In this document: positions 1 through 44,914 of the stretch, piece by piece
Layout: every line of letters begins with the position of its first letter
How positions within the stretch are numbered: position 1 is the stretch's first letter
From: Cyanidioschyzon merolae
Taxonomy: Eukaryota
Length of the DNA stretch: 64,000 nt
NCBI GenBank assembly: GCA_000091205.1
Contig: AP006491.2
Strand: one strand, 5' to 3'
Made by a program: the position numbers and the translations under genes
Notes under the pieces: model-generated
What the model was told of the DNA's origin: nothing
Seen by the model: the letters and a program-made list of their open reading frames with translations, nothing else
Databases searched by the model: none

Positions 1-24
1 TGTCGGGCATACTGTGTGGCACAC

Positions 25-2428
25 ATTCATATAGCAGCTCCATCGTTCACCAATTGCCCAGGAGAAGGTTCCCATTACATACATCTTTGTAGTGCTCCAG
101 CCTTTCCGGTTCGCTGACCCGTGCTACACCAGCGACTCGCCCAGGGCGGATATCCAATGCCCGCCCACCTGACCACCGATTCGTATTCATCGCAACGCAT
201 CAGCTTCCCAGCACAATACCTCCACTGAGCACTAGAGGATTCCCTCAAGAGTTCGCTCGACACAATGCCGCGGGACGCTCCGAACGCTCCCGGCATTTCC
301 GTAAGTTGATCGAGGCGCTCAGGTCTGGGTGCAGCAAGTGCATGCGCACTTGTTGCGGATCGAGCCGCGGCATAGCAAGTCTCCTATCTTCGATGGCCTC
401 GTCAACTGACGCCCGGTCAGTTTGCCGTTGACCAGCCCGTGCATCCGACACGCTTCTACGCTGTTCCTCTCTACCAGCTCCAGCGTGCACCCCTGCCTGT
501 GATGCGCGTACATCGCCCTGTTCGCATTGACAGCAATAGTGCAGAATCGACTCGTGCACTCGTTGCACGCCGCCGTCGAAGGCACGGGAGTACAGCCTGT
601 GCGCAGCACTGCGCGTCGAGCGCCACAGGCTACCGCCAAACGACGCGAATTGTCGATCATCTCCCTCTGCTCTCCATTGAAGAAGTGAGCTGGTGCGCGC
701 TCGTGGTTTCATCGCACCGAGCTGGTTGGCGATCTCAATGCGGTCTCATGAAAACCTGCCAGGGATAGCCCACGTGAGCCAGATACACGCTCTTGTACGC
801 TCTGTGAGTGGCGCGCACAACGCATCCCGCTCAACTCGTTCAGGTGCTCAGAGCGCCATCATCGGGTCTGACGCCGCTATTCCACCCGCTGGCATGCCGC
901 CTGGCGTCCATCACGCCCGACTCCAGATAATACAGAGCCATGGAAAAACTTGAGCAGCCTCATGTGCTTTCCATTCACTTCGTAGCGTCTGAGCGCTTCA
1001 CCCAGAGGTACGGCGATGTCCTTGAGGTTGATAGACCGGAGATTCACACCCGCCACGACGCTTGTCTCCTTCTCTCGGTTGAACTGTCGCAAAGCACCCT
1101 CTTTGCTCGATTCAAGCCTCCGTTTCACAAAGTGTGGGCAAATGGATATTCAGTGTGATCTTGACCCTCGGATAATTTCCCCCGGGTGCCCTCCCGGGTC
1201 CTCTTGTCATACGGATTCTGCTGTTCTGTAACCAACGGAATTTTCTCCATCTCCTAATGTTGGCGCGGTGCTATAGACGTGGACCCTATATCGCATGCCC
1301 GCTTTTCTTCCTCGGGGTTCAGAGGCACTGGATGGCCGCCGGCACTGAGACTTGCGTTTTCTGTGTATGTATCTCCAAGTCTTCGAGCGCTCTTCCTCAC
1401 CTGCTCTGTCGCGGGCACGCTCACGCACCGTAGTGCACCTGTCCGCCCCCTTGGTTTCACACGCGATCGGAGAAGCGGGAGTGCGGTTCAGGCCTGGTGA
1501 AGCAAGAGAACGAGTCGTCGTAGGACGGTGCTGCGGATGCAAACGAAGCGTCTATGGATCCGTGAAAGTAGAGACGGCGTTTGACGAAACAGAAGTCGCC
1601 TTCGGCTGGGTGCAACCAAAGAGCCTAGGTTGGAACGAGGGACAGCTCAACGCCAATCTCAATTGCAGACGCCCTGACCGCGTTTGACCGATGGAAAAGC
1701 GGCACTGCCGAAGAGCAGTGCAGAAGAATTCGGTACTGGGAGCTCACGAACCGCTTCGATGAGGAAATGGACCATTGAACGATCCTGTCTGTTTGGTGAT
1801 TTGAGGGCGATCCCAACTGAATCCGGGGGCGAGGCGCATGTCGTCACCGTACGCGCCTGTGCCATATTTACGACCAGCGGTGATCCGCTGTTTGAGCACC
1901 CATATCGAGGTCGACCATTTCGCTCGGATGATACCTCATCGAGTGAAACGGAGACCGGCCCGTTCTGTACTAACCGTGCGCGTTACAGCATGAGATCGGT
2001 AGCGCGTTATTCAACGCACGACGGTCTCCCGAAGAAGAGCGCTTTTTGCTCTGTCCATCCGTGTCTCTTGGTGGCCATTGTATCGAGGGCACGGAAGCTA
2101 CACATCCTGTTGGTTCGTTAGGAACGTTTCCGAGAGCACGTATGGAGTGGATTGGATTGACTGGGAGACAATTTTGTGTACCGAGTTTGATCGTTTCCGT
2201 CGTGATGCCCAGAACGCAGAATAAGTAGTATGAGGAGTGCGGCTCATGTACCAGCTCACCGTAGAACAACTGACTTGAGCAAGTAAGGCCGTGTGTCGGA
2301 AGCTGGCAGTCACAGCATAAAGCATTTCCGCGATCTTTCTCCGATCCACGAGATACGTTCCTCTTGGTGAATACCTGCGCGAAGAGAACAAAAGAGGGTG
2401 TGCTTGTAAAGATATCCTAGAACGTACT
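25..2428. repeat. Left arm of a ~2.4 kb inverted repeat. It is the reverse complement of 6156..8560, with the symmetry axis at x+y≈8584.
   Basis: Near-identical ORF pairs on opposite strands (75..296- = 8288..8509+; 245..712- = 7872..8339+, 1 aa difference in 155; 1684..2121+ ≈ 6355..6900-). I reverse-complemented 1..85 by hand and it matches 8497..8540, then decays. The inner boundary was checked at 2428/6156. Confidence 0.85.
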
Positions 2429-2808
2429 GCTCTGCATACGGCATTTCGCTTGGGCTACTACTAACTGCGAGAGGCTTGCTGTCGGATGCGCGCTTTAGTG
2501 CGCTGCCCATGCAGAAAAGCTAAAAGACTGTATTCGCTCTTTACAGAGCTGACTGCTGCTCCTCGTGTGGTTCGTGGACCCTCTCGCTTCTCGGGCACGA
2601 GTGTCTGCAGGCCGCGCGTTGCACGTACCGAGAACAGAAAGCAGAACTGCTCGTTTGAGACGCTAGGCGCGGCAGGGAAACGAAAACAGTCGGCACTGTC
2701 CTGTGGTAGTCCCTGCTCCAGGGACTTTTGGCGGTGGCTCTTGAGCCAGTCCACAAACACTGAGCGTTAGCTACGAGAAAAAAGTGTGTTCTGGAAAGCC
2801 GGTGTAAA

Positions 2809-3372
2809 ATGGCGGAGCATCGAAAGCGCAAGCCGACGAAGTGTCTGCGGAATCTTCTCCTCACTGGAACTCCGGGAACCGGCAAATCTACAGTTGCTGC
2901 GAAGTTTTGTGCGAGAATGCGGTTGAACGTACCTGCAAACGACTGGCCTGTTCATATAAACGTCTCTGAACTGATCAAGGAGAACCCGTCGCGGTTCGCT
3001 GAGGAGTTTGATAGCGAACGCGACTGCTTCGTTATCAACGAAGACGCCGTAGTTGAGCACCTAGAGCCCATAGTGCAAAAGTGTAATGTGGTCTTAGAGC
3101 ACCATTCCAGTGACTGGTTCCCGGAACGCTGGTTTTCCCGAGTTGTGGTCCTGGCCAGCGCGACTGATGTACTGTATCGACGACTCGAGGCGAGAGGATA
3201 CACGACGGAAAAAGTGCAAGAAAACGTAGAAGCAGAAATCATGCAAGTTTGTGCAGATGAAGCGATGACGAGTTATGACCGCAAGATTGTTGACATTTAC
3301 GAGAACAATACTGAGGACGATATGGAGCGAATCGTAGGGAACCTCTGCGAATGGTGGTTGATCAGAAGTTGA
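2809..3372 (+). CDS. AK6: Adenylate kinase isoenzyme 6 (AK6/hCINAP/Fap7 family).
   Basis: ATG at 2809. P-loop LLTGTPGTGKST, then ...DWFPERWF...VLYRRLEARGYTTEKVQENVEAEIMQV, co-linear with AK6/Fap7 over the whole 187 aa. Confidence 0.8.
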   Translation: MAEHRKRKPTKCLRNLLLTGTPGTGKSTVAAKFCARMRLNVPANDWPVHINVSELIKENPSRFAEEFDSERDCFVINEDAVVEHLEPIVQKCNVVLEHHSSDWFPERWFSRVVVLASATDVLYRRLEARGYTTEKVQENVEAEIMQVCADEAMTSYDRKIVDIYENNTEDDMERIVGNLCEWWLIRS

Positions 3373-4687
3373 TCTGTCGACAAGCAGCAACCTGCTGCTC
3401 ACTCGGGCAATATGGGCACTTGAATCTTGTGTTGCCCCTGGGCAGGCGGTTCACTGTTTCTTTGCAGAGCACGTGGCCACAGGGGAGCAAGTACGGCGGA
3501 TTCGTTGGAGTGCTCTGCTCTCTGGAAACTGGGCAGACGAATATAGAGTGGTATTTGTACTTCTTGCCCAGGTCTATCTCAACAGGAAGTTCTTCCCGTT
3601 GTGTCCAGGATTCACGCGTTGCGAGCAGTCGAGTAGCGCGCATCAAAACTGGCAGTGCTATCGTTCCGCACGCAACAACGCTGTACAGGGGACTCTCCTC
3701 GCTTAGATCGAGATGTGCCCAGAAACAACGCCGAAAGGATTGCTCGGCGTCATCGGATAGCGCAGAGGTAAAAAATGAGGCATATGGAGATTTTGCGATA
3801 CGCGATACGAAGGCAAAGCAACCCATAAGTTGCTGAATTTCCTTAGTCTGGGAACGCTGGAAACGAGCAAAATGCTGGCGGGCGTATGCCAGGGCCTCTG
3901 GTAGTCGCCTTTCCTGTAGATAATTGACGAATCGCAAACGATGAAGTTTGAATTCCAGTTCACGTAGTTTTTCGGCAAGCGCTTGACGTCCAGCGTTCGT
4001 GGGTACAGACGGGGTAGCGCTGTGCGGTATGTATGTCGAGTCCTGCATCCTTTGCGCCGCTGAGCTCTCCGAGGCGCCGTCCTGGCTATCGCTGCTTCGC
4101 TCTATCCAGGAAGAGACCCGCTGTGTCCAGAGAATAGCAGGCTCAAGCGTTCCGTGGCGAATATCGTTCAAAATAGCGTACAAATCCCTGAAAGGGAGTC
4201 GATACGTGTCCTCAAAGCTTTGGCCGGACTCTCTAGCGAAGGAGTCCGCGATATCGAAGTGACCTTCTCGATAGAGGTGCTCACCGATTGCTCGTTCAAG
4301 AAGTGTTTTCTCCAGCGGTTGAACATTGCATAGTTGAGAGATCTGTGGGTCAAAACAATTTTCCCCGCTTTTCGTGTACTTGGTAATTGCAGCTTTCAAC
4401 TCCTTCTCTCGTACAGACAGAGTCTCGAAGAGAGCCAAAACTTGTTGCTGAAACTCTGCCAACAGCAACTTGCGTGCTTCTACAGATGTCGTAGGCGACA
4501 GTATGGCGACTTGGAAGCGATCCAGAGCATCCTTCAGGTTCTGGCACGCGTCAAAACTGGAGCCCGAAAGTTTCTTCTGTTTCGCGACCAGCCGCACCAG
4601 GTCCGCCGCAACACTCACAAGTCCAGCGCCGCGTTCTTTTGGCAACTGGCCGCTCATCAGAGCCTGTGATGTCTCGGTGCCAGACAT
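3362..4687 (-). CDS. GID/CTLH-complex RING-like E3 subunit (RMD5/MAEA homolog). The ORF track starts at 4846 with a non-ATG codon; the first in-frame ATG is at 4687.
   Basis: C-terminal degenerate RING: FVCPVSREQSTPTNPPYLLPCGHVLCKETVNRLPRGNTRFKCPYCP, matching the RMD5/MAEA-type RING. Upstream is a helical LisH/CTLH/CRA-like region. The 3' end overlaps the AK6 3' end by 11 bp, convergent. Confidence 0.6.
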   Translation of the reverse strand: MSGTETSQALMSGQLPKERGAGLVSVAADLVRLVAKQKKLSGSSFDACQNLKDALDRFQVAILSPTTSVEARKLLLAEFQQQVLALFETLSVREKELKAAITKYTKSGENCFDPQISQLCNVQPLEKTLLERAIGEHLYREGHFDIADSFARESGQSFEDTYRLPFRDLYAILNDIRHGTLEPAILWTQRVSSWIERSSDSQDGASESSAAQRMQDSTYIPHSATPSVPTNAGRQALAEKLRELEFKLHRLRFVNYLQERRLPEALAYARQHFARFQRSQTKEIQQLMGCFAFVSRIAKSPYASFFTSALSDDAEQSFRRCFWAHLDLSEESPLYSVVACGTIALPVLMRATRLLATRESWTQREELPVEIDLGKKYKYHSIFVCPVSREQSTPTNPPYLLPCGHVLCKETVNRLPRGNTRFKCPYCPSEQQVAACRQINF

Positions 4688-6155
4688 GTCGCCTCCTGGG
4701 GGCCTTTTCCACAAGCGCCGACACGAGAGTAACGACCTCGTATACCAGCACAGGAACCGTTCCAGGACACGCACTCGATCTGCTTCGTCTGTTGATGAGT
4801 CGCAGTCGATCGCGGCCGTCGCCCCTGTTGCGGCCCCCAGCAGCAAAGGCGACAGCAGCAGCGTCGTGAAACAATACCGAGAGACGTCCCAGCGGGTATC
4901 AGTTGTTACTCCCCGAAATTACCATAGGAAATATGGCGCTGAAATATGCGGAAAAGAAAGCATCACGGTTGGCGCGACTTTTTCTGTCCGTGCTGACGCC
5001 CTGTTAAGCTTGGATGTTCATCGGAAGGGGCGCTGTGCTCCAGTAGATTCATGTTGCAGCGCTGCGGCTGTTGTATCTCTTTCCGAGAGATAAGATGTGG
5101 AAATTCTCGTTATGTGCCGCTCTTGTGCACTGAACATGCGTCTTGAAACTTGGCAATACATTGCCTTGGCTCGTGGGAGAGTGCATGCATTAGACGCCTT
5201 CAGCCGTGGTCAGTGCATGTCGATGGTGCCGTGGTGACTGGGAGCAATCCGCCATGGTGGCTGATAATTGCGCAAAACCCCGCTCAATACGGAGCAAAAT
5301 ACGTCTGGCGCTCGAATCCGCACCGTCACCACAGATATAGAGCCCGTTGGCAACAAGCGAGTCGCGATTATGTCCCACGTTTGGACTTGGTTGCATCGCG
5401 CCTGCGGTTAATGTGCATGCTTGCAGCTATTGCCGCGTTTGCGCCGGGCATGCGTGCCCGCCTGAGGCTTCCCCTCGTTATGCATTTCCAAAGCGCACTC
5501 GGGATTGCGCAGCTGCTACTTCAAGCACACACGAGCCCGAGGACGGCCGCCGCCATAGCATAGAGAAGTACCGCTGTTCGTGAATGCCGCCAGAGAGGTC
5601 CCCGAATGCAGCCTCTCTTCTGAACGAGGATTACTGTTCGGGAAGTCCAAAAGGATGCTCCTCTTGGGGGCTTGTATCGAGCGTTCGCAAGATTTCTCCT
5701 GACACGCGCTCGGAGGACAGCAATGCAACACCGGCCCGAGTGGTCAGCGATCTTTCAACTCCGGGGGCACTTTCGCTCTACCTACCAAACTGTCGATGGT
5801 CTGGACGCATGAATAAGCTGCTAGATTCCGGACTTTACGACGCAAAACAACAGGTTTGCGTCATGGTACAGAGGTGCGCCCTCGGTAGAGGTGCCTGAAG
5901 GACCCATTCCATGCCAGGCTGAACACCAGAACGATACGGCGCAGAAACAACCATCACGCGTTCAGATGATGCTGGTTAGATTCAGGAAGCCAGAAGTACC
6001 CACATCTGGGAAGCGGCTTGAGCTCCTTTGGACAGAGCTGCGTATGCTTTACTGGCAAGTGGGTCAATTAGAGTCCAGCCGAGCCAGTGACTCTCCAGCA
6101 GGACGTGCACACGATGCTGATTTCCGGTTTGTCGGTACGCGTTACATTCAAAGCA

Positions 6156-8560
6156 GTACGTTCTAGGATATCTTTACAAGCACACCCTCTTTTATTCTCT
6201 TCGCGCAGGTATTCACCAAGAGGAACGTATCTCGTGGATCGGAGAAAGATCGCGGAAATGCTTTATGCTGTGACTGCCAGCTTCCGACACACGGCCTTAC
6301 TTGCTCAAGTCAGTTGTTCTACGGTGAGCTGGTACATGGGCCGCACTCCTCATACTACTTATTCTGCGTTCTGGACATCACGACGGAAACGACCAAACTC
6401 GGTACACAAAATTGTCTCCCAGTCAATCCAATCCACTCCATACGTGCTCTCGGAAACGTTCCTAACGAACCAACAGGATGTGTAGCTTCCGTGCCCTCGA
6501 TACCAATGGCCACCAAGAGACACGGATGGACAGAGCAAAAAGCGCTCTTCTTCGGGAGACCGTCGTGCGTTGAATAACGTGCTACCGATCTCATGCTGTA
6601 ACGCGCACGGTTAGTACAGAACGGGCCGGTCTCCGTTTCACTCGATGAGGTATCATCCGAGCGAAATGGTCGACCTCGATATGGGTGCTCAAACAGCGGA
6701 TCACCGCTGGTCGTAAATATGGCACAGGCGCGTACGGTGACAACATGCGCCTCGCCCCCGGATTCAGTTGGGATCGCCCTCAAATCACCAAACAGACAGG
6801 ATCGTTCAATGGTCCATTTCCTCATCGAAGCGGTTCGTGAGCTCCCAGTACCGAATTCTTCTGCACTGCTCTTCGGCAGTGCCGCTTTTCCATCGGTCAA
6901 ACGCGGTCAGAGCGTATGCAATTGAGATTGGCGTTGAGCTGTCCCTCGTTCCAACTTAGGCTCTTTGGTTGCACCCAGCCGAAGGCGACTTCTGTTTCGT
7001 CAAACGCCGTCTCTACTTTCACGGATCCATAGACGCTTCGTTTGCATCCGCAACACCGTCCTACGACGACTCGTTCTCTTGCTTCACCAGGCCTGAACCG
7101 CACTCCCGCTTCTCCGATCGCGTGTGAAACCAAGGGGGCGGACAGGTGCACTACGGTGCGTGAGCGTGCCCGCGACAGAGCAGGTGAGGAAGAGCGCTCG
7201 AAGACTTGGAGATACATACACAGAAAACGCAAGTCTCAGTGCCGGCGGCCATCCAGTGCCTCTGAACCCCGAGGAAGAAAAGCGGGCATGCGATATAGGG
7301 TCCACGTCTATAGCACCGCGCCAACATTAGGAGATGGAGAAAATTCCGTTGGTTACAGAACAGCAGAATCCGTATGACAAGAGGACCCGGGAGGGCACCA
7401 GGGGGGAATTATCCGAGGGTCAAGATCACACTGAATATCCATTTGCCCACACTTTGTGAAACGGAGGCTTGAATCGAGCAAAGAGGGTGCTTTGCGACAG
7501 TTCAACCGAGAGAAGGAGACAAGCGTCGTGGCGGGTGTGAATCTCCGGTCTATCAACCTCAAGGACATCGCCGTACCTCTGGGTGAAGCGCTCAGACGCT
7601 ACGAAGTGAATGGAAAGCACATGAGGCTGCTCAAGTTTTTCCATGGCTCTGTGTTATCTGGAGTCGGGCGTGATGGACGCCAGGCGGCATGCCAGCGGGT
7701 GGAATAGCGGCGTCAGACCCGATGATGGCGCTCTGAGCACCTGAACGAGTTGAGCGGGATGCGTTGTGCGCGCCACTCACAGAGCGTACAAGAGCGTGTA
7801 TCTGGCTCATGTGGGCTATCCCTGGCAGGTTTCCATGAGACCGCATTGAGATCGCCAACCAGCGCGGTGCGATGAAACCACGAGCGCGCACCAGCTCACT
7901 TCTTCAATGGAGAGCAGAGGGAGATGATCGACAATTCGCGTCGTTTGGCGGTAGCCTGTGGCGCTCGACGCGCAGTGCTGCGCACAGGCTGTACTCCCGT
8001 GCCTTCGACGGCGGCGTGCAACGAGTGCACGAGTCGATTCTGCACTATTGCTGTCAATGCGAACAGGGCGATGTACGCGCATCACAGGCAGGGGTGCACG
8101 CTGGAGCTGGTAGAGAGGAACAGCGTAGAAGCGTGTCGGATGCACGGGCTGGTCAACGGCAAACTGACCGGGCGTCAGTTGACGAGGCCATCGAAGATAG
8201 GAGACTTGCTATGCCGCGGCTCGATCCGCAACAAGTGCACATGCACTTGCTGCACCCAGACCTGAGCGCCTCGATCAACTTACGGAAATGCCGGGAGCGT
8301 TCGGAGCGTCCCGCGGCATTGTGTCGAGCGAACTCTTGAGGGAATCCTTTAGTGCTCAGTGGAGGTATTGTGCTGGGAAGCTGATGCGTTGCAATGAATA
8401 TGAATCGGTGGTCAGGTGGGCGGGCATTGGATATCTGCCCTGGGCGAGTCGCTGGTGTAGCACGGGTCAGCGAACCGGAAAGGCTGGAGCACTACAAAGA
8501 TGTATGTAATGGGAACCTTCTCCTGGGCAATTGGTGAACGATAGAGGTGTTATATCATTG
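6156..8560. repeat. Right arm of the ~2.4 kb inverted repeat (partner of 25..2428).
   Basis: Same evidence as the left arm. ORFs 6087..6485+, 6355..6900-, 6897..7232-, 7042..7377+ and 7872..8339+ mirror left-arm ORFs at ~99% amino-acid identity. Confidence 0.85.
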
Positions 8561-10281
8561 GATACTAGTAAGAATACTCGGGATATAACGAGAGCGTTTG
8601 GTAGCATTGCTACAACGCAGGATCGGAGTCCTGGTTATGCATTGAAATATTAAATAACTCTCAGCGGAAACCTCCGAGGGCGTTTTCAAATCAAGAGGGA
8701 AAACGGTTCGCTCGGAGTCTACACCTGTGTGACACTAATACAGAAAACTGAAGAGCTCGCTCTCTTCATGCCTCGAGATTTTCCCGACCTTATTCAGCTG
8801 ACGTCCAATTACAAGGGTTCGTAAAGTAACCGATATCATCATCCTGTTCATACGGCCAGGCCAAGCGTCCACTCGCCTCGTTTTTTTTTCTGTTTAGCAT
8901 GCTCGAATCAAGCAGACTACAAGCTTTCGCTCTTTCTTTTTCAGAGGTAACTCGTGAGCGTAGTGATCTGTGCAACGGGATTGATGAGTAAAAATACTTG
9001 ACGTCGCCCATGCGCGACCTCTTCACAAGCTCATGCCGAAACTTCACTGAATTTCTCCCGTTAAATGATAAATTACGTTCGGATTACAAATTCAGCTCTT
9101 TTTGTGGCCATTTACGAAGCGGTATTCAATTGCTGTTGGATAGCTCTCACGGGATATGCTGCCAGAGGCTCCCGTCTCGTTGGTTTGCAGGGAAAAGAGT
9201 TTCGGACTGGGACTAGAGACATCGCTGCGGTCGCTCCCAGTGTAGGGAGTGTAACGATTTTGTACGACGCGAGCGTAGAACGGATCGAAATCCATCGATT
9301 TCTTCACCACCCTGGATTTTCGTTCCGGAACTTGTTTCAGTACGCAGAAAGTAGCGTTCCACAAATCCTCTATCCAATGGAGCAGCATGCGCTTACGTGT
9401 GCTGCGGACGGAGCATTCGCAATGGGAATCGCCCAGAAGAAGCCTTTGATCATGTGATAGGGCAGCAGGCGTCGAAAACAAAGACCGCATCAGGCGGAGC
9501 CTTCTAGACCGGTAAAGGGCGTGTACCGAGCGTTGAAGGAAGCGTTCACGCTTCACAAGGCAACCATCGGAGGAGCAGTAACGGCCGACACGTGGGATCA
9601 CTTCAACTCTGTTAAATGTTACCGCTACGAGGGGCGACTTGGGGCTGCGTTCGAATGTGATGAAAATAGCAAACAGACTGTAGATCGCTTCTTCCGCCTG
9701 TGTATGAAATGCATCACCAGCAGCAGCAAGCAGCAGAGTCGGGACTTGAGTAGCGCCATCCACATCCTTCCCCTGGTGACATCGAAGCTGATGGGAACGG
9801 AGAGACCACCATAGAAATCCGCATATTACAGTGGAAAAGTAAGTAGTGGCAGAACGAGCCTACAAGACTAATGTTGATGATAGCGCGAAGAGACCCAAAC
9901 GTCTGCTCGTACGTTCCTGTTAGCTAGACGGGACTCGTTCCGTTTTAGTGTGACATGGAGCCCATACTTTGCGTGGAGCTCTTGGAGGGATTGGACGTCT
10001 GGCATCCGGCAGGCCGCCGTTTAAGCTACGTGTATGGTTTTGTGCTGAAGTAGACGTGCGACGAGCTGCCTTCGTGTCCACTTGTACACATGCCTTCACT
10101 TGTTGGCGTCTAAGGAGCAAGCGGACGCGCACGGGTCGCGGACGCGAGTTGGCGCCAAACAACTTGAAAGTGTGCTCCTCCTCGTCGAGGTCGACGTTTT
10201 CGCAGCTCACAGAGAAGCGAAAAGTCTTTCCTGCAGAGTTCTCGCCGCTCCCTGATTCGATCTTTTGGGTGGAGCTTCGAC

Positions 10282-11706
10282 ATGAAGGTTCCATTCTGGC
10301 TATTTGCACTTATGGTTGCTTTGGTTTCGTTCAACGGGTGCAATATAGCGAAACCCGCTCAGTCTTGCCTTGGCTCGGGGCTCGCAGGCTGCTCGGCGCA
10401 GTTGTATTCTGGGAACCGGAAGGGTTGGTTCAGCGTATCCGGCTCCGTACAGGATACAATATTTACTCAGAATGAGCTTGCATCAAGCTTGGAGAGACTC
10501 GTCAGCCACATAATAGAACCTTTCCGAAATGCAACAGCGGAGGAGCTTCGCCACAGACTACGCACACTGTTCGAGCGCAAGACGTATCGCGTAACCCCGA
10601 ACGGTGCACGCAAAGCCGAAGGTTGTGTCGTCTGGTCGTGGCAGGGAGGAAACCTTACGTTCAACGCACCGACAGAGACGGAAACGATGATGCACCGCAC
10701 GAAACCTTTCTGGTACAATCGCTTACGCTGGACGTGGGAGCTGTTTGAAGCGATAAAAATGCCCAGAGACGACTTTGAGATAGCGCAGTGCCTGCATGAC
10801 TGTGTTCAGACTGTTCGAAAGGAGCCGCAGTTCGCCAAAATGCCTCGGTATCCCGAACCTGGACCGATTCCAATTCTCAGTCTCATCCAGTGCTGCGGCA
10901 TTAGCGATGATATTCCCGCACCAGTTTTTGAATCTGGCAGACCTGGCCCGAGAACGATTTTCTCAACTGGTCTTCGCGACTGGGATGTTGCTTGCGCGCT
11001 CCAAGCTGCTTCTGCTTTACCGTGGGCGTTTAGACTGCCCAAGGCAGTCTTCCGCGGCTCCGCTCGAGAATCTCTAGAGGAAACCAGACTTGCGACCGTC
11101 TCTGGGCGGAGAGGAATCCACGGACGCAGAGGGTCGAACGCGTATGGCCGGCGAGCCCTGGCAGAGCATGGCCGCCGACACCCAGCATTGCTGGATGTAC
11201 TTGTCACAGAATCCGGGGGCAACAGAAGTGCCGGCGGCTTTATGTCTGTCCGGAAGTTGGTGAACTACCGCTACTCTGTGCATGCTGAAGGCAACTGTGG
11301 CTGGGCAGACCGCTTATGGTGGCAGCTACACGCTCCGCAAGTGCTGCTAAAGCAGCGATCACCGTGCGGTCTGTACTTCGAACCCCTGATGAAGCCATAC
11401 AGAGATCACATCCCTGTCTCTGGGTCATTTGACGACCTCAGTCGCAAAGTAAAGTGGCTCCAGCGCCACGAGTCGGATGCTCTCGTAATGGCGACGAATG
11501 CAATGAGATTCGCGGAGGCGTACCTCGTTAGACGGAGCATACTCAAATACTTTGAGATGGTCCTAAACCAGTACGCACAAATTTGGCGACATCATTCTTA
11601 TGGAGATCGCGGGCACTTCCAATCAGGAGGTGGTGGCGCTGAATGCCTTCGACCTCGTTTCGACTTTTGGTTCTTAGAAGAAAAAAGGGATGCAGATGCG
11701 GGATAG
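10282..11706 (+). CDS. Secreted GT90-family glycosyltransferase (CAP10/POGLUT/KDELC-like).
   Basis: ATG at 10282. N-terminal signal peptide MKVPFWLFALMVALVSFNGC. The C-terminal half (WADRLWWQLHAPQVLLKQRSPCGLYFEPLMKPYRDHIPVS...FDDLSRKVKWLQRHESDALVMATNAMRFAEAYL) follows the conserved GT90/CAP10 domain pattern. Confidence 0.55.
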   Translation: MKVPFWLFALMVALVSFNGCNIAKPAQSCLGSGLAGCSAQLYSGNRKGWFSVSGSVQDTIFTQNELASSLERLVSHIIEPFRNATAEELRHRLRTLFERKTYRVTPNGARKAEGCVVWSWQGGNLTFNAPTETETMMHRTKPFWYNRLRWTWELFEAIKMPRDDFEIAQCLHDCVQTVRKEPQFAKMPRYPEPGPIPILSLIQCCGISDDIPAPVFESGRPGPRTIFSTGLRDWDVACALQAASALPWAFRLPKAVFRGSARESLEETRLATVSGRRGIHGRRGSNAYGRRALAEHGRRHPALLDVLVTESGGNRSAGGFMSVRKLVNYRYSVHAEGNCGWADRLWWQLHAPQVLLKQRSPCGLYFEPLMKPYRDHIPVSGSFDDLSRKVKWLQRHESDALVMATNAMRFAEAYLVRRSILKYFEMVLNQYAQIWRHHSYGDRGHFQSGGGGAECLRPRFDFWFLEEKRDADAG

Positions 11707-18485: not shown

Positions 18486-19876
18486 ACCAGATTCAAAGGG
18501 AACAAAAAGCCACTCATTCTAAGACTGAATTTCGTTCTTTCCGAGCTTTTTGTCAGATGAGCAGCCTCGACATCCGAAGTGCATCAGTAAGGGCACTGCG
18601 GATTCATGCAAAGCTTGAGGAGTTTCGGGGGTGTTTTCGGAGTGACCCCTTCGACGCTCTGCAGCCAGAATTCGTCCGTCATCGGTACCAGGACGATTCG
18701 CGACGGCCTCGAAGAAGGACCCCTAAACTAAGCGACGGCACCATTGAATTCACATGTACGAGACTCCAGGCCGCTCGTTTCCATGCGTTCAGGGTGTCCT
18801 ACTCACGCATGCCTCGCACGCTCGACCTTTCTGTTCCAGGGCAACTCGTAGGCACAACAACTCGCGCTCCTTCGTTGACGGGTAAGTAAATCGACTTTAT
18901 GCGTTGGCGGCATGCTCACAATATCATGCGCAAACTTCACCGAAATTCTCGCTTCGAAAAAATAGACTCCGTTCAAACGACACATCCGGCTCTCTTTGGA
19001 GCCAACTAGGCATCGGCTTTGCACAGAAGCAGTTTCCCGTCGACGGGGCATGCTCCCAGAGGCTCCCGGCTCTTGTCATCGGAAACCGGACTCGGGCTCG
19101 GGCTCGGACTTTAGTCATCGCGGAGGTCGCTTCTGGTACGGTCTGCATCACTGCCTTGGACGAGCGCAGCGGACATAGATCGAATTCTCTGGGCTTGTTC
19201 ACCAACCGGGATTTCCCTTCCTGGGCTTGTTCACCATCGACATCATCGCATGGCACAAGTCCACTGTCGACTGGGACAGCGTGCGTCTGCGTGTCCAGCG
19301 CGCAGGGCACTTGCCCAGCGCATGACCCCGAAGAAGCCCGTGATCGTCGAGTGCAGCACCGGTCGCGCAAAAGCATGAGGGCATCGAGGCGAGCGTTCTG
19401 TGCACGCTCACGGCATGTATCTGGCGCAGGAACAAGTGCTCAAGCAACACAGGGCCTCTTGTCTGAAGAGACTGCGTTGTAGTCACATGGGATCACCTGA
19501 TGACGCAGACAGGTCACCGCTGCAACAAGGCGCACAGCGTCTGTATACAACGAGGATGGAAATGGCAAACGCAGCGTAGATCGCAACCTTTGCGTGTGCT
19601 CGAAAGACGTCAACAACGAGCCGGAAGCGGCGAAATCGGGACTTGAGCGCTGCTATCAACATGGTTCGTCTGTCGGCACCTGAGCTGGTGGGAAAAAGAT
19701 AGACCAGCGCGTTTGAAGCTGGATAGCAGAGTTAGGAACAGTAAACACGTGCAGAGACATCCCGTAGCGGCTTGTGTTGATGATAGCGAGAAGGGACCCA
19801 AACCTGAGCGTGTACTTCCGTGTTAGATAAGTTGGCCCGTTCCGTTCTATTCTGACATAGTTGTAGAGGCTGCCCC
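18486..19876. repeat. Dispersed repeat family A, copy 1 (~1.39 kb). It is a direct repeat of 32856..34246.
   Basis: Identical ORFs appear at a constant +14370 offset (18904..19482 = 33274..33852; 19199..19486 = 33569..33856; 19610..19801 = 33980..34171). Boundaries were read from sequence divergence at both ends. An internal (GGACTCGG[G/A]CTCGG) microsatellite lies near 19085/33455. Confidence 0.85.
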
Positions 19877-20878: not shown

Positions 20879-22675
20879 CTAGATGTTGATGTTGAACGAC
20901 ACACCAAGGTTCCCGGGCCCGACTCCGCTCGTGAACCCGTTCGGGCCCAGCAGACCCGCCTGCTCATCGGGTACCATGCTCAGCTGGACCTGCGTCCGGC
21001 CCTGCTGATGCAGCAGCGACATGTTCACATTCGTATCCGGAGGCCGGTACGCCAGCCCAATGTTCCAGTTGCCGAGCGCACCACCATACTGCTGCTGCTG
21101 AACCGCCTGCAGCTGCGCCTGCTGCAGCTGCATGTACTGCATTGCCTGACGCTGCTGCTCAGCCGCCTGGATCTGCACGTGAATAAGCTGCTTCCGCCGT
21201 GCAGAGATCTCCGCCATGGTCTGCTGCAGGTCGCTACGCTCATTCGCATAGGACCAGTCGGATCCGGGCCGCACGCTCTCCTCCGCCTCGCGCTGGAAAA
21301 GCGCATCCGCTGTGTAGAACGCAAAGTCGCCAGGAATCTCCTCAGATGAAGACGCAGTCTTAAAGTGCTGCAGCGCGTTCTCCCGAATTATCTGCAGCTG
21401 CTTCAGGAACAGCGACTGCAACGACGCATCGAGCACAGTCTCGAGCTCCGCCAGTTTCCGCTCGCGCACTTCAGTTCCCGCATACGCCTCCGTAGCCGAT
21501 TCAAAGCCACTCAGGTACTTTTGCAGAAGCTCCTCCGCCCGGCGTCCAAAACCACTGATCTTCTCGCCCTCGTCCAGTTGACTCGCAAGCTCCCCGAGCT
21601 CCTCGGCGCTGTTCCGAAGCGCCTCGGAGAAAGCGGCATCGCAGTGATACGCTGCTGCCAGTGCCTCTGGCGTGAGCGCTTCCCCAGCGGCTCCTTCATC
21701 CGCCGCCGCCGCCGCCGCCGCCGCCGTAGCGACACGCATGGCCAGCGGCTTCGCAGCACGCATCGCCCCAGCGGGCTGTGCACGAATGCCCTCCCAGAGG
21801 CGTCGACTGAAGGCACCGAATCCATCCGCAGGCAGACCCTTGCTGTATTGCGAGGACAGCAGGCCGCCATCGCCACTGCCACTGCCACTGCCGTCTAGGA
21901 GGTCCCGCCGCAGACGCTGCACAGCGGCGTCGTAGGCTGAACGCGACGTGCGCGGCGACGGCAGCAGAGCTACGCGCAGCTCGAGGGCAGCGCGCAGCGC
22001 CTCCACCGAGTGACTCGCTGCTGTCGGTGCTGATGCTGCTCCGTCGCCGATTTCGCGCTGCCAGTGCTCCTCGGCGTCCAGCCAGAGAGACTCCGCGATC
22101 AACGATGCAGTGCTCTCGGTGGTATCCGCGTCCGCGCCCGTATCCGCGTCTGCGTCGCGCACCACGAACACAACGCAGGTGCGCAGGAGAGGGCCCTCCG
22201 CGTGAGCCAACTCGCGCACGATCGTGCTCAAGTACCACTGTGGGTCTGCGTCGTAGCGTCCCAGGTCGTGGTACCAGACGTTGCACAGAACAACATCGGA
22301 CACACTGGACACGTAGCGGAGGCAGCGCTCCTGCAGCTGCTGCCCCGTCGCGCCTCCGTCCCCGCCGTCGATCTCCAGCACCAGAAGCGTCTCCTGGTTT
22401 GCTGCCAGTGCTGCAGAGACGCCGCGGGTCTTCCAGCGCCGACGCTCAGTCGCCCGCGCGTGCGACACCGCGAAACGCGTCCCGAAAATGTCATTCAAGA
22501 GACTCGACTTGCCTGATAGCGGGCTCCCGATGCACCCGACGACACGATAGCATTCAGCGCCGACATCGAGCTCGCTTGGGAACCAGGGCGTGCGCTCCAG
22601 CATCACGCCATGTTCATCAATGATCTGCAGCACGCCCGCTGGCGCACTGGCAGATTGCGCTGTTCCGTTGCTCAT
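20879..22675 (-). CDS. RHD3/Sey1-like (atlastin-type) dynamin-superfamily GTPase with a Gln/Ala-rich C-terminal region.
   Basis: ATG at 22675. The G1 P-loop VVGCIGSPLSGKSSLLNDIFGTRF, ...LVLEIDGGDG..., ...VVLCNVWYHDLG... and ...VVFVVRD... follow the Sey1/RHD3 GTPase-domain order. No C-terminal TM helices were seen, so this may be a divergent family member. A (GCC)n tract encodes poly-Ala. Confidence 0.5.
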   Translation of the reverse strand: MSNGTAQSASAPAGVLQIIDEHGVMLERTPWFPSELDVGAECYRVVGCIGSPLSGKSSLLNDIFGTRFAVSHARATERRRWKTRGVSAALAANQETLLVLEIDGGDGGATGQQLQERCLRYVSSVSDVVLCNVWYHDLGRYDADPQWYLSTIVRELAHAEGPLLRTCVVFVVRDADADTGADADTTESTASLIAESLWLDAEEHWQREIGDGAASAPTAASHSVEALRAALELRVALLPSPRTSRSAYDAAVQRLRRDLLDGSGSGSGDGGLLSSQYSKGLPADGFGAFSRRLWEGIRAQPAGAMRAAKPLAMRVATAAAAAAAADEGAAGEALTPEALAAAYHCDAAFSEALRNSAEELGELASQLDEGEKISGFGRRAEELLQKYLSGFESATEAYAGTEVRERKLAELETVLDASLQSLFLKQLQIIRENALQHFKTASSSEEIPGDFAFYTADALFQREAEESVRPGSDWSYANERSDLQQTMAEISARRKQLIHVQIQAAEQQRQAMQYMQLQQAQLQAVQQQQYGGALGNWNIGLAYRPPDTNVNMSLLHQQGRTQVQLSMVPDEQAGLLGPNGFTSGVGPGNLGVSFNINI

Positions 22676-24370
22676 GGGCAGTGTTCAATGCTTCGCTGAA
22701 GGCACCTGGTGTCCCCACAGTTCAGCTCTGTACCGTATGAGGCTTTGTAAAGACTTGACTCCGATCCACTGTGAAGTGTATTCGGTTGGGTTCCGGGCGC
22801 AGCACTGCGTGGGACGCCGTCCGCGTTTCCAGCTGTGTACGCGTTTCTAGCCACAAGAGCGCTGCTCGCCACGGTAGTGACTCCGGTTAGGCGCGAGGTG
22901 ACAGCACGTGCGCACGTTTGGTGTTATTTGGGCAGAGTTCCCGTCAGCAGGCTGCTGTGCCTTTAGGGCTGGGCCTTCTGGCTGCGCTGCAAACCCAACA
23001 GGAAGCTGAACTGCCGCAGTGCGCTCGAGTACGCCTAGGTCGTTGCGGTGCGCGCCGGCGTGTGCTGCTCGCGCTCAGGGTAGTTGCCGTAGACCGCGCT
23101 GGAAACCAACTAGGCACGCGCCTCGTCGTCCTTCTACTCGCAGGGGCCTCCTACCGCACTGCGCTTCTCGCTCGCGCTGCAGACTCGGGTAGGGTTCCGC
23201 GGCGCCGTGCTCAGAATTCGCACAGGCTATGAAACCTTGGTGCCTGAGAGCACGAACCTGTCTCCAGATGCGGTCGGGGCTCACCGGCTCAACGCGCTGG
23301 TGCTTTCCTCTCTTGTGGGTGCGCGCACGCGTAACTGGTCAATAGTGCTCGCAAGGCGTGTTGGTATGCAGCCCCTTCAAACTCCCCGTTTCACCGGGCA
23401 GAGACTCGGACTCGCTCACGCGTTTATGATCTGCGTACCACGGGCAAAGCGTCGAGTTGCACGCGCACCTAGCGCTCGAAGCTATCTATAAGAAAAGAAT
23501 GTTCACGACACAGCGCGACGCTAACGGCGACGTCCTGCAGCCTGGAGTCGTCTGCGCGCAGCCAGCGGTCATTTGGCGACGGCGGGGCGGGCGACGCGGC
23601 GGCTGCGCGCTGGTGCAGCGCCCTGCTGGTGTCCGTATTGTCGCAGAGCGCAATCGCCGCACCAGCGCAAGGCGCGCGCATCCCAGCGGCAGTGCACGCC
23701 ATCACTCAGGCAGGCAACCTGGCGCATCGTGCAGCGCACCCAGCGGCAGCGCACGTCTGTTGCCCATCCAGCTCGCTGAGCCTGTGAACGGCCAGGCCGC
23801 ATGCCGGACGCTTCGGGCGCGCGCCTCTCGCGATTCGCACGAGCGTTCCGTTTCGACGCGAGACGTCGACACTCGCGTCAGCACACGGTGAATTCCGCGT
23901 ACTGGACAGCATAAGGAGACGCTCGCTCTCGCTTGCTGGAGCCGTGTGCAGCGCACAAGTTGCGCAGCAGAAGAGCTGTCTTGTACAGACCGAGACAATA
24001 TCCGATACGTCGAGCAAGCCACAGAGCTGCCGGAAATACACAACGAGGAAGCAGTGTCGCGAGCTGTTATAGCGCTACACCTGACACGTCGAGCCTCGGG
24101 GGTGCTACGACCTGCACGAGGGCAACGACGGCGCACGGCATAACAAGCACGGGTAGACGGGTGCTGGGCACGTTCGGCTTGCTGCGACGCTGGTAGGAAC
24201 CGAACGGGGTGCTCGTACTCGCACCGCTCGCCACTCAGGGTCGCGATCGACACGAGAAGCGCCCACAGGGGAAACGATGGCACCACGAGCGCTGGACGCA
24301 TCGTCGGTGATCTCGGAACCGCTGACACTGCCGCTGACGGGCCGCGCCGCACGAGACCGGGACGCACTCT

Positions 24371-25531
24371 TTGGAGCAAGCGCGGGCACTGCGCCTAACC
24401 CTGCGCCTGTGTCGAGGCGCAAGCAGCCAGTCGCTGGTGCGGAGAAGCGCCCCGCGGCCCGGCCGACCGTTGAACGGAGCCGCTGATGCGGCCGTTCGCG
24501 GGCTGGAAGTCGCAGGGGAAGCGGCTCCACCTTCCACATTCGCAGCAAGCACCAGTGCGCCGGACGCCGAGCTGTTGCAGAGCCGCCAAACTCAGGTTGA
24601 GCAGCTGCGGCGCCAGGCTACGGACGCTGCGCTGCGGGGGCGTCAGTCATCGCGCCGGGCGCTGCAGCTTGCACGAGAGGCGCGAGCGATAGGCGTCGAC
24701 GTTACCATGAGGCTGGGCGAGCAGGACGAACAGCTGGATCGCGTGCAAAACGATCTGGACGAGATTCACGGCCACCTGACGCACAGCGACGAAATCATTC
24801 ACGACATGCAGAGTTTCTGGAAGAAGATGTGGCCTTGGGCGCGCGATCGGAATCGGCGGCACGAGCGCTACGCCCCGGTGCTGGGGGCAGACGGGCCCTC
24901 GACGTCAGCGACGCGGCACGAGATTGCATGCCTGCAGCGCCAGCGCGAGGCGGGGACACTGAACCTGCGGGAACGGCCGCCAGCTGCTTGCTCGTCTGAG
25001 CGTTCGGCGGATGAAGCGCGAGCAGCTGACGATGCGCAGGTCGGGTCATCGCCAGGGTCGGTACCGGCGCACGCGCTTCTACAGGACGCGGTGGATGGCG
25101 AGGCGGCGTCGCTCGATGGCGACAGCGAGCGTCGGCGGGGTCTGCTCTCGTCGCTGCGGCGCGTAACGCGGCGGGTACGCGGCGTCGACGAGCCCGAGGA
25201 CCGTGTGCGGCGCGAGCGGGCTGCGCTGCTCGCAGAGGGTACCGCTCCGACGGCTGCTGCTGGTGCTGCGGCAGCGTCGCCTGCGGACGCAACCGAATGC
25301 GCGGATGCGTCTGCGCAGGCCTCGGCGGCGCCGTGGGAAGAGCACGTTCAGGCACAGGATCGGGACCTCGACGAGCTGAGCGTTGTGGTGTCGGACCTGC
25401 GGACGCTTGCAGTTGGCATCGGAGAGCAGGTGCGCCACCAGAGCACCAAGATCGACGTGATTTCGAAGGACGTGGACTATGGGCGCGAGCGCATCCACGA
25501 GAATAACCGTCGCATTCGACGCATGCTCTAG
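24371..25531 (+). CDS. SNAP-25-family Qbc SNARE (two SNARE motifs). The start is uncertain because there is no in-frame ATG before the Qb motif.
   Basis: Qb motif LAREARAIGVDVTMRLGEQDEQLDRVQNDLDEIHGHLTHSDEIIHDM parallels SNAP-25 [33 protein letters not shown].... The C-terminal Qc motif is ...DLRTLAVGIGEQVRHQSTKIDVISKDVDYGRERIHENNRRIRRML. A long low-complexity linker separates the two. Confidence 0.65.
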   Translation: MEQARALRLTLRLCRGASSQSLVRRSAPRPGRPLNGAADAAVRGLEVAGEAAPPSTFAASTSAPDAELLQSRQTQVEQLRRQATDAALRGRQSSRRALQLAREARAIGVDVTMRLGEQDEQLDRVQNDLDEIHGHLTHSDEIIHDMQSFWKKMWPWARDRNRRHERYAPVLGADGPSTSATRHEIACLQRQREAGTLNLRERPPAACSSERSADEARAADDAQVGSSPGSVPAHALLQDAVDGEAASLDGDSERRRGLLSSLRRVTRRVRGVDEPEDRVRRERAALLAEGTAPTAAAGAAAASPADATECADASAQASAAPWEEHVQAQDRDLDELSVVVSDLRTLAVGIGEQVRHQSTKIDVISKDVDYGRERIHENNRRIRRML

Positions 25532-28500
25532 AGCTACGGATGTGGCGGCAGCGAATGCCGCCGCCACTGCCGCCGCCGCCGCCTGGACGCACGCACGCAC
25601 GCAGGTGTCTGTTCGTGTGCGCGGTGCGTGCGATCGAGGCCTGTATGTGAGGCCGGCGAGCGCTGCTGTTGTGTTTGACGGGAAGCGCGAAGCGCTGCAT
25701 GCGCGCAGCGCCTCATCGATCTCATCGAACGATGGACAGGCGCGCTTGCGCACTGTACGCCAATGCGGGAGATGGAGGATGAGCGGTGAGGCCAGGAGCG
25801 CCTCGGTGTCTTCGGGGTGCGTCTGGGGTGCAGAGCTGCGAGGCAAGCGGCTGGCGCGTCCAACGCGAGATCGTTGTGTGTCAGTGTCGGGCGTTTCGTG
25901 GCGTGACTTGGCGGTGCTTCAGGGAGTTATCCACGTGCGAGGTATCCGTTGTCGATCGGCGGAGGACGCTGGTTCTGGTTCGCGCTTCTCTCTGTGCGTC
26001 ACTGAGACAGGGGGCGGTACTGCATGGCATCGATATTTAATACCTGGATTGGCTGAATCACTTGAAATGAACTTCTGACCTGGCATTAGTCTGTGCGCCT
26101 CCAGTCCTGTTTGATAGACCATGATTGAATTGGATCCGATGTGAATGGGCAGAAGTGACTGACTCTATGAAGTTAATGATAAGACCTCACCCGCTGATCG
26201 AAGTTTTCGGTCAGTGAACACAGTATCTGTTCTAGCGGGGGGTCTTATGGGTTGAAATATACTCTGAGGAGTGAATTCCGGACCGAATGTAGCAGCACGT
26301 CCTCTTTGATTTTTATGTGTCTCTTTCGCAGGTATCCGACATAAGGAAAGTGTCACGCGGGCTGGAGAAAGGTCGCGGGACGTTTTATGCTGTTACTGCT
26401 AGTTTGCGAGAAAACATTCTTACTTGTCTATATCAGTTATTCAACGCTGAGTAGCTGGATAATCCACTCTTCTCGTCGTCCCTGTTCCGAACGTCGTGCA
26501 CCCAAAACGGTGCTTGACAGACGCGATCTACTCGACCCTATCATCGTCGATCCATTCTACGCCGTAACTTCTCTACGAAATGCGACTAGACAAGCCACAG
26601 GATGGCACGTTGCTGTACGGTCCGTGCGAACAGTAATGAAGTGCCACGGATGGATGAAGAACGAAGCGCGACTCTAGAGGAGAACACTGCGCGTTGAACA
26701 GCACGCCAGCGATTTAGCACGGAAACGCGAACGCGTATGCCGGGATTGACCGATGTTTGTCTCGGTCACCCTCGATGGGAGATTATGATGGGGGTCTATG
26801 TGGTATTCCTCCATATGCGTAATGCAAGACAGGGGCTAACCAGTATCCGTCAAGAAGAGACAAACAGCGTGCATGACAACGACACAAGTCCTACTGGCTT
26901 TGCTATCATCGTGTGGTCACTTCCATATCGCCAAACGGACTAGTCCGTTCAACACCTCGTGCACCATCGAAACAGTGTTTGGCTTCACCGCCTCACGCAT
27001 GCTTTTGTCCTGCTCTTTGACAACGTCGGTTTTCATCGCTCATGAGCGTTCAGGGCGCACACCGCTGGGGCTGCTGTTCAGCTGCGCTTCATACCAGCAT
27101 CGATATCCGGGTTCAAGGCAGTCGAAGGCGTCATCTGTGTTGCGGAGCGTCTTTTGCGGACTGGTGGATCAATAGACGAGTCGTTCGGATCTGTGGCCCC
27201 GTTCTTCGACGAATCTTTCTGTACGAGCCTCACCAGCGCTGAACAGCTCTGCTGCTCGTATGCTGTTGCGCAGCAGGGGGCGGAAAGGCGCGCGTCGGTC
27301 CGCGAGCACACTCGCGACAACGAAGGCGACCACGAGGTGCATAAGGAGAAATAGACGCACACGTCGATAGGAAGTGTGGGCTTCAATTCCGCCGCCCACC
27401 GTGTGCGTATGGACTCTCAGGGAAAAAACGTAGACGAACTGCCGCGAACGCCTGTTTGTTGTCGCACCAAGTTTCGGCGAAGGACAGGATACCAGGGACA
27501 CGGAGGTGAACGGTCCTCCAGAAGAGACGGCGAGCAGGTACCGGAAACAGACACCTCTGGAGCGGAAAGTCGAGTCTGAGCCGAACACCACGGCCGCAGT
27601 ACCGAACACACATCGTTTGGGAGGATCTCCCAGACAGTGCGGTGCAGGGTGCCTTGGCTAGTCGCGTGGCGTCTTTCTAGGATACGGTAGGCCTAGTGTC
27701 TCTCGCTTTGACGCCCCTCGTCAAGCAGTAGTTTGTTGGAGTTCCGGATGCGAGGCTGAGCTGCCAGCGATGCACATTCTGCGGGAATACTTGAATCCAA
27801 CCTTCGTGCGACGACACAGCTGGTACTCGGGACACAAGATGCACTGGGGCCTGATCGTGGAATCCGAGGACACCACAAACGCTTCCCAGCAAATACCCTG
27901 AGGTGTCGCTGCGCCAGTTCGGCGCTCGTGATATCGTCAGCGCAGGAGCAGAAACGTATGAGAAAATTACCGTCTAACGAACCGGAATCGTATGCGAGTC
28001 CGAGTCGAGCGCTGCATGAGGCGCATACTGTGTCCGTTGGGCCCGCTGTAGCTTCGCTTTACGAGTGGCGAAAATTGGGGACGGACACGAGCGGTATTTG
28101 GAGTGCGGCTGGAGACTGCGGACGAGCTGGCGGTGGCGGAAGAAGCCGAAGCTGTAGCGAGTGCGGAAGCGATCTCGCAAGGAGCGCGAGACTCGCTTCA
28201 GAGTGTCGGAGCATATCGAGTTAGTCTTGGCCTCGAGGTTACGGAAGTCGTACCTGGGGGCTGGTTGGAACGTGATGTCTGTCTGCGTTTCATCGTGGGG
28301 TAGAAGGTTTTCCGGAACAAAGCCCTGCAGAGCAAAGCCGACTACCTCATCGAGTGCGAGCGCCCTAGCCGCCTCAAGCATCTATCTGGTGTGATCCGCG
28401 TATCTCAGATCAAGGCGCATGACCGCACCGTAGACGCCCGTAGAGTGTATGACGGCAGGGATGAGCGACCACTGGTCTCTGAAGGCTGTGACGACACATG

Positions 28501-28754
28501 GAAACAGCTTTGCGAAGAGCGTCGGCCGATGTTGTCCAAAGCTTGTGGTTTGCAGGCAGGGCACGGGAAGCAGTTTACGGGGATGATGAAGTCCGACGGA
28601 ACATCAATCTGGGTGCGCTTTGTGAAACCTATAAAACTCTTGAAATTGTTGAAACCCGCGAAACCTAGATCTGTGCCGAGCAGCGATAATAATTCCGAGC
28701 CGTTCGAGGCGGATGAAGAGGACGACTCTGTAGCGGGCTTCGATTCTAGGTCGA

Positions 28755-29872: not shown

Positions 29873-30324
29873 TAATGTGAAGGATTCGAGAATCATGAAG
29901 GGTTTCCAAACATTTGGTCTGCATGGTGAGGTAAATTTAGCAGTATAGCTAAAGATCCAGAGGACTCCGCCACGAAAAACCGTCAGGACAGGATAACACC
30001 CCTCGCCGCTTGGGTCGTGGTTTTCTCCACACTTGATAAAAACGTTTGACGTTCTGTATCCTACATGGATCCGACGGGGGATTTCTTCGGAGTCTGTCCA
30101 CCACGGAAGGAGAATAGAAAAATAGAGCCCTCGAACGAAGAACGCATTCGGATGATCATCTCAATCAGTGGAATCAAGTCACAGAGGCAACGGATACAGA
30201 TCGGGCTTCCTCGGCAATCATGTTGCAGTCGCTGCGTACGGAATGCAATGCGCGTTGCAGCGCAGAACTGTTGCTGACGCGCATGGCACGTAGGAAGGAC
30301 CTCTGCGAGAAGCAATGCAAGGCT

Positions 30325-44817: not shown

Positions 44818-44914
44818 ACATGAAAGGAAACCACACTCGCGCTGGGACGAACACCGGACTTGAATTTTTTTGAACGGCAGCGATTGGCAGCGACTCGGCA
44901 GGCGCCGAACTCGT

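Follow-up and report, generated by a model that had tools for sequence, protein, structure and literature searches.

In human Xq28, a segment carrying FLNA and EMD reportedly lies between 11 kb inverted repeats, and Small and co-workers are said to have demonstrated both of its orientations in 1997; for the palindromes of the human Y chromosome, arm-to-arm gene conversion was reportedly described by Rozen and co-workers in 2003. Ectopic gene conversion also takes place between dispersed repeats such as yeast Ty elements and human Alu or L1 copies; we know of no description of it so far for the repeats of the alga Cyanidioschyzon merolae. Here we analyze an inverted repeat of C. merolae 10D that brackets the genes for AK6 and an RMD5-type protein. 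It lies at the left end of a 64,000-nt stretch (GenBank assembly GCA_000091205.1, contig AP006491.2; hereafter the window), which is part of an 810,151-bp chromosome. Its two arms of 2.4 kb are 99% identical and are units of a dispersed repeat, termed family A in the following. We favor the interpretation, to which we assign a probability of roughly two in three, that gene conversion homogenized these arms after two family A insertions had already diverged.

The comparison with the described systems is instructive in both directions. As in the FLNA-EMD segment, arms of about 99% identity flank a short unique segment with two housekeeping genes, neither of which would be disrupted by an inversion; unlike in FLNA-EMD, both orientations are encountered here only in short-read assemblies that are unable to bridge an arm, and the arms are copies of a dispersed repeat. 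With the Y palindromes the locus shares an arm identity that is very high although the arms seem to be of older origin, as well as a divergence that rises at the arm edges, which is consistent with concerted evolution. However, the arms of those palindromes are said to carry genes and to span 10 kb to 1.5 Mb, whereas the arms studied here measure 2.4 kb and are non-coding, the genes being located in the spacer. Ectopic conversion among Ty, Alu, and L1 copies finds its counterpart in a family A copy at a third locus, where an in-register patch of 0.9 kb is embedded in an otherwise 40-68% alignment, although this patch is seen in metagenome-derived contigs only. Finally, inverted repeats bracket a potentially invertible segment just as in the FLP/FRT system of the yeast 2-micron plasmid and in the Hin and Gin systems, but the arms provide 2.4 kb of general homology instead of short specific sites, and an inversion would consequently use general homologous recombination. 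No gene for a site-specific recombinase was found in or beside the structure: only AK6, RMD5, and the glycosyltransferase gene GT90 lie between or beside the arms. The inverted repeat is a genuine and non-random structure, but one of a known kind, and it bears no sign of a dedicated function.

Extent and authenticity of the inverted repeat

Arm coordinates and identity were derived from a self-comparison repeat search of the 64-kb window and a separate arm-to-arm alignment. The repeat search yielded two gapless inverted blocks, 24-2080/6504-8560 (2,057 nt, 99%) and 2080-2437/6146-6503 (358 nt, 98%), which are separated by a single 1-nt indel and together form one arm pair of 2,414 nt with the symmetry x+y = 8584. 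The left arm (minus strand), which runs from its outer end at position 24 inwards to 2437, is inverted with respect to the right arm (6146-8560, plus strand). In the alignment, the core of the pair (42-2431 versus 6152-8542) contains 22 substitutions and 1 indel, corresponding to 99.0% identity over 2,390 nt. Mismatches crowd at the termini: five fall into the outermost 18 nt (24-41/8543-8560) and three into the innermost 6 nt. A match of 2.4 kb at 99% is beyond chance, and the window contains no further arm copy of comparable identity. The sequence-only reading had placed the arms at 25-2428 and 6156-8560 with about 99% identity and x+y≈8584, had described a gradual decay of the right arm between 8540 and 8560, and had suggested a self-comparison as a check. 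Having run this check, we confirm both extent and identity, with inner ends about 9 nt further in, and the five mismatches in the outer 18 nt agree with the described decay. The differences between the arms are skewed, with G/C on the left against A/T on the right at 16 sites and the reverse at 6, numbers that are small and for which there is no reliable outgroup polarization.

Between the arms lies a unique spacer of 3,708 nt (2438-6145), which would invert upon a crossover between them. Its non-coding parts (2438-2808 and 4688-6145) have no match elsewhere in the data compared, and three contigs (L012, L014, L015) break at, or at most about 175 nt from, both spacer ends, as expected beside a repeat.

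These contigs and others that carry the same locus stem from public assemblies derived from metagenomes and the SRA (JGI, ENA, Logan) and are 99.2-99.8% identical to the window. All four arm junctions are present in these independent assemblies: the junction of left flank and arm in L005 and L027, the AK6 side of the arm in many contigs, the junction between the RMD5-upstream side and the arm in L003, L004, L006, and L033, and the junction of arm and right flank in L001, L028, L030, and L031. Many further contigs end exactly at arm ends, for example L015 (2433-6150) and L008 (which starts at 8513), and this is how a genuine repeat behaves in short-read assemblies. A scan of metagenome contigs with an arm 23-mer returned three contigs only, one of them new. 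The long, highly identical arms in inverted orientation on one chromosome are confirmed by the independent assemblies. That the reference assembly is in error, i.e., that an arm is chimeric or falsely duplicated, we regard as practically negligible: the arms carry distinct variants, namely the substitutions and the indel listed above, JGI, ENA, and Logan assemblies independently contain every one of the four junctions, and the reference genome was finished telomere to telomere (PMC1955436). In the literature we located neither a description of this inverted repeat nor long-read structural data on C. merolae.

Arms as units of a dispersed repeat

Copies of family A were located by nhmmer with the arm as query. 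At least five copies or fragments are present in the window, and additional ones were found at other loci (L034-L036, L046). The longest copy in the window (26254-29873, plus strand) is 25-63%, mostly 50-63%, identical to the arm per 100-column window and is composed of two modules: 26254-27493 aligns to arm positions 6139-7347 and 28559-29873 to arm positions 7393-8575, with about 1.07 kb of extra sequence in between. A partial copy (44910-46199, plus strand; arm 7558-8577) comprises the 3' module only, and a partial, diverged fragment is found at 62796-63429 on the minus strand (arm 7736-8350). At the third locus mentioned above, a copy between the genes for an XPD-like helicase and the proteasome ATPase PRS7 (L034 8186-10698; L035, L036; three samples) aligns end to end to arm 6136-8567, and L046 holds the 5' module only. 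With the exception of the arm pair, family A copies are mostly about 40-68% identical to the arms. Family A homology extends across arm positions 6136-8567 in L034, across 6139-8575 in the longest window copy and, for the right arm overall, from about 6136 to about 8577; its limits coincide with the arm ends. Because the homology between the arms starts and stops where family A homology does, each arm represents one whole unit. The arms are units of a non-coding dispersed repeat that is specific to the C. merolae lineage and whose unit length is about 2.4 kb here.

The non-coding nature of the arms, which the sequence-only reading had proposed on finding no recognizable protein in them, was borne out by several searches. 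Scans of selected open reading frames (ORFs) of the arms revealed no Pfam domain, and ORFs of family A and of family B, a second dispersed repeat of the window described below, likewise gave no Pfam match. In the arm region, Rfam searches at E up to 1 and ARAGORN for tRNA genes gave no match, and TRF detected no tandem repeats in window positions 1-10000. For an arm ORF of 181 aa, only nine relatives with 31-48% identity were obtained among 1.84 billion representative proteins; all nine are unnamed metagenome ORFs, and they are other copies of the repeat. A search for homologous proteins with a second arm ORF (155 aa) retrieved only this ORF itself. Six-frame tblastn of the arm gave weak matches to other parts of the window in several frames and on both strands, which indicates similarity at the DNA level and not a shared protein. 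With respect to the traits of non-LTR (long terminal repeat) retrotransposons and short interspersed nuclear elements, no reverse transcriptase (RT) domain was found in the selected ORFs and no A-run at either arm terminus; several family A copies are incomplete and have the 3' module in common, a pattern that 5' truncation could explain.

A published repeat of the same organism invites comparison: Nozaki et al. (2007) described a "novel interspersed repetitive element" of C. merolae with 253 copies, a mean length of 3.2 kb, and a share of about 5% of the genome, which is transcribed and contains a truncated ORF weakly similar to wsv486 of white spot syndrome virus (WSSV) (PMC1955436). Like this element, the arms occur in C. 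merolae, are dispersed and multi-copy, form units of 2.4-3.6 kb, lack an intact ORF, and are intergenic; family A as a whole shares the dispersed, multi-copy, C. merolae-specific profile with a length of around 3 kb. Judged by these general traits of the published description, the 253-copy element, whose defining feature is the wsv486-like ORF, is probably family A or family B, if it is either of the two. Families A and B together occupy roughly a quarter of the 64 kb, a share much larger than the genome average of 5% reported for C. merolae repeats.

The family A 3' modules 28760-29874 and 44910-46198 form a direct pair that is 94-98% identical at a distance of 16 kb. Both contain a short tract with hexamer or 12-nt periodicity (ATAAGCACGAGCACGAGC...) at 29039-29122 and 45189-45416, respectively, the length of which differs between the two copies.

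Arm identity and spacer orientation

The state of the locus before the arms arrived can be read from three more distant Cyanidiophyceae: one represented by L041-L043 (RMD5 59% identical), one by L044 (RMD5 63% identical), and Cyanidium caldarium (GCA_026184775.1; L045, RMD5 49% identical). Their common gene order is MutL - DUF1499 - GT90(-) - RMD5(+) - AK6(-) - PFK, with AK6 called in L041-L044 and not in L045, and the gap between GT90 and RMD5 spans only 0.35-1.4 kb. Neither an inverted repeat nor family A or family B sequence is present at the locus in L041-L045. This synteny in repeat-free relatives implies that the RMD5-AK6 pair resides at its ancestral site and that the repeats inserted only in the lineage of C. 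merolae; moreover, the gene order of the relatives identifies the orientation found in 10D, with RMD5 beside GT90, as the ancestral one.

On this background, we propose that two family A copies, which had already diverged from each other, inserted separately and in opposite orientation into the intergenic regions that flank the ancestral RMD5-AK6 pair. Gene conversion from arm to arm would then have brought the interior to 99%, and only the last 10-40 nt or so at each end would have kept the older, family-level divergence. The structure would accordingly be a passive by-product of repeat insertion and active homologous recombination and not a dedicated device. The termini of the arms agree with this proposal: beyond the core at the outer end, the arms are identical at 13 of 18 and then at 11 of 23 positions, i.e., at 24 of 41 (about 59%), where about 11 would be expected by chance, and family A copies elsewhere also align to this outer stretch of 41 nt. 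The same drop to family-level similarity is seen in the innermost 8 nt. The arms combine an identity above the expectation for their age with older divergence at the edges, the latter being visible at few sites. What looks like a decayed edge is the similarity at the family level that remains beyond the homogenized core.

The third locus provides a second line of evidence. Its family A copy matches the arms at 31-68% identity in the segment 6183-7644 but at 93-100%, and in register, from 7645 to 8540, as seen in all three samples; the patch of near-identity comprises about 900 nt, and similarity at the family level continues on both of its sides. The assembly graphs fork three ways at 7636 and 8542, as is shown by short contigs that end precisely there. 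The endpoints of the highly identical tracts differ from pair to pair (third locus, about 8522; arms, 8542; pair ending at 29873/46199, about 8568), as is expected for conversion tracts and not for the termini of an element. An in-register patch inside an old copy can be produced by conversion and not by transposition, and the third-locus patch has the appearance of ectopic gene conversion among dispersed repeat copies. The nucleus of C. merolae normally integrates DNA by homologous recombination (PMC3764038), which means that the recombination machinery is active.

Several points weigh against this interpretation. The arm divergence of 0.9% is close to the divergence of 0.2-0.8% between 10D and the metagenome strains, and two insertions from a single master shortly before the strains split would lead to the same divergence with no conversion at all. 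For the arms, the argument in favor of conversion draws on short termini of about 40 nt on the outer and about 8 nt on the inner side, and the third-locus patch is known from metagenome assemblies only and not from 10D itself. Mosaic arm haplotypes in metagenome contigs may have been generated by the assembler merging the arms and were not counted as evidence. A block of five arm-diagnostic sites at 2004-2244 in metagenome strains was rejected as proof of crossovers: what could be taken for a reciprocal swap between the arms consists of two haplotypes that come from different samples and both occur on the AK6 side, so that gene conversion or assembler merging suffices as an explanation.

The alternative that arises from these points is that the arms are simply young, be it that one active family A element inserted twice in the recent past or that one arm was copied across by transposition, in either case without conversion. 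The arms are indeed complete units with family termini, their divergence is near that between strains, and the window harbors other near-identical pairs (18488-19875/32858-34245, 98.7%; 28760-29874/44910-46198, 94-98%) that possibly reflect recent mobility. A transposed copy, however, should match up to its termini, whereas the last 18-40 nt of the arms are only about 59% identical and nonetheless align to the family; the near-identity at the third locus is an in-register patch within an old copy; and no ORF, RT, transposase, terminal inverted repeat, poly-A tail, or target-site duplication was seen. We therefore consider recent insertion unlikely. Far less probable still is an origin by inverted duplication of a unique segment at this locus or as a composite or foldback element with AK6 and RMD5 as cargo, both of which the sequence-only reading had raised, the former as a recent duplication with a partly decayed edge. 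The geometry would fit, as long inverted arms enclose a unique segment that is short, but the arms belong to a dispersed family and do not represent local unique sequence, and their ends are the ends of the family A unit. A composite element is contradicted by the synteny of the gene pair with GT90, DUF1499, and MutL in the three repeat-free relatives and by the absence of any direct repeat seen flanking the 8.5 kb unit; moreover, neither tandem sub-repeats nor a transposase, a transposase-like ORF, or a recombinase were found.

Conversion between the inverted arms, as we prefer to explain their identity, may also be resolved as a crossover and could in this way occasionally invert the spacer of 3.7 kb. 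We expect this inversion to be nearly neutral, as the arm sequence beside each gene would be identical in either orientation; 372 nt upstream of AK6 and 1,458 nt upstream of RMD5 are kept inside the spacer. The sequence-only reading had suggested that the arms could drive an inversion by homologous recombination, and the part of this suggestion that concerns the substrate holds, since the arms are long, near-identical, and inverted. Cruciform extrusion, a further possibility named by the sequence-only reading, is not expected with a spacer of 3.7 kb. Whether arm crossovers have actually inverted the AK6-RMD5 spacer, with both isomers coexisting in populations or even within a strain, can be judged from contigs that traverse a whole arm. 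Starting from the AK6 end, such contigs lead to the left flank in two of the samples (L005/L026, L027) and to the right, GT90-side flank in four (L001/L024, L028, L030, L031); the diagnostic sites at 20-41 (flank) and 2432-2445 (spacer) agree with these flank assignments, and the same spacer haplotype occurs with both flanks. As the 10D arrangement is ancestral, the connection of AK6 to the right flank, which is the inverse of 10D, would be the derived one. All of these contigs are, however, short-read assemblies, in which a repeat of 2.4 kb and 99% identity cannot be bridged by read pairs and the path through it is possibly arbitrary; many other contigs simply end at the arm ends, and none of the contigs recovered connects the RMD5-upstream end with one of the flanks. 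Contigs that would lead from the GT90 side across the arm to the spacer were also sought, but all those obtained end at the arm edge or in family B at about 8950-9070. Taking both sides together, coexisting orientations seem possible to us, with the balance tilting somewhat against them. The wider proposal that the 3.7 kb segment flip-flops in C. merolae populations and that the dispersed repeats, in addition, evolve in concert by frequent ectopic conversion is more doubtful.

These questions are of practical relevance. C. merolae serves as a minimal photosynthetic eukaryote model and as a chassis in which genes are targeted by homologous recombination. The near-identical inverted pair and the shared patches are risk sites for targeting constructs, short-read assembly, and variant calls, and near-identical repeats constitute a natural read-out of the frequency of mitotic and ectopic recombination in this organism. 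If both orientations coexist, the locus would offer a simple nuclear inversion polymorphism in a haploid alga that is testable by PCR; if flip-flop and concerted evolution both apply, recombination between repeats would still be reshaping a very small, repeat-poor nuclear genome. Otherwise, the structure is an ordinary outcome of repeat insertion and recombination.

Genes and other repeats of the window

The spacer holds two convergent genes, as the sequence-only reading had correctly recognized. AK6 (2809-3372, plus strand) encodes a broad-specificity nucleoside monophosphate kinase of 187 aa (Pfam AAA_18, 7.6e-27) that is identical to BAM80044.1 and also matches the UniRef entry "Adenylate kinase isoenzyme 6 homolog" exactly. 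RMD5 (3362-4687, minus strand) encodes an RMD5/GID2-type CTLH-RING E3 ligase of 441 aa (Pfam CTLH, 3.7e-26; zf-RING_UBOX, 5e-08) that is identical to BAM80045.1 and whose best named relatives are RMD5 and GID complex subunit 2 proteins. The 3' ends of the two genes overlap by 11 nt (3362-3372). This tail-to-tail coding overlap is conserved, measuring 62 nt in a relative (L041 10419-10480). A second C. merolae-like lineage in the metagenomes (L011-L020, L032), which is about 99% identical, possesses its own arm haplotype, and in these contigs an upstream in-frame start lengthens AK6 from 187 to 212 aa.

The right flank is marked by GT90 (10282-11706, plus strand; Pfam Glyco_transf_90), a glycosyltransferase gene whose product is identical to BAM80046.1 and which synteny identifies as the ancestral neighbor of RMD5 in the relatives; BAM80044.1, BAM80045.1, and BAM80046.1 are all proteins of C. 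merolae 10D. On the left, an ORF ending in ...GPAGMSSIGQM* stops 7-9 nt before window position 1 (L005 1-250/L027 4888-5260), which places the outer end of the left arm at most about 30 nt from the stop codon of the neighboring gene. The candidate assignment of this neighbor as PFK, by analogy with the relatives, was rejected, as a different ORF is located there; it has no Pfam match.

Family B is unrelated to the arms and comprises 8800-9958, 18488-19875, and 32858-34245 as well as 55216-56362 on the minus strand. The first of these copies (plus strand), which lies between the right arm and GT90 and is not part of the inverted repeat, is diverged (about 64%) and homologous to 18703-19860, 33072-34230, and 55216-56362 (minus strand). 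The pair 18488-19875/32858-34245 is 98.7% identical over 1,388 nt, the other copies being at about 64%, and the family B ORFs of 192-223 aa have no Pfam match. Directly upstream of the family A copy that begins at 26254, the region 22000-26000 is GC-rich (63-67% versus about 55% elsewhere) and contains long overlapping ORFs on both strands, with a sub-threshold match to V-SNARE_C as the sole Pfam signal.

The remaining genes of the window are ordinary nuclear ones: MutL, RHD3/Sey1, DNA polymerase alpha, NFACT, two MRS2-like genes, an M17 peptidase, and Gar1. The two MRS2/CorA-like magnesium transporter genes are arranged tail to tail at 50899-52509 (plus strand) and 52669-54783 (minus strand).

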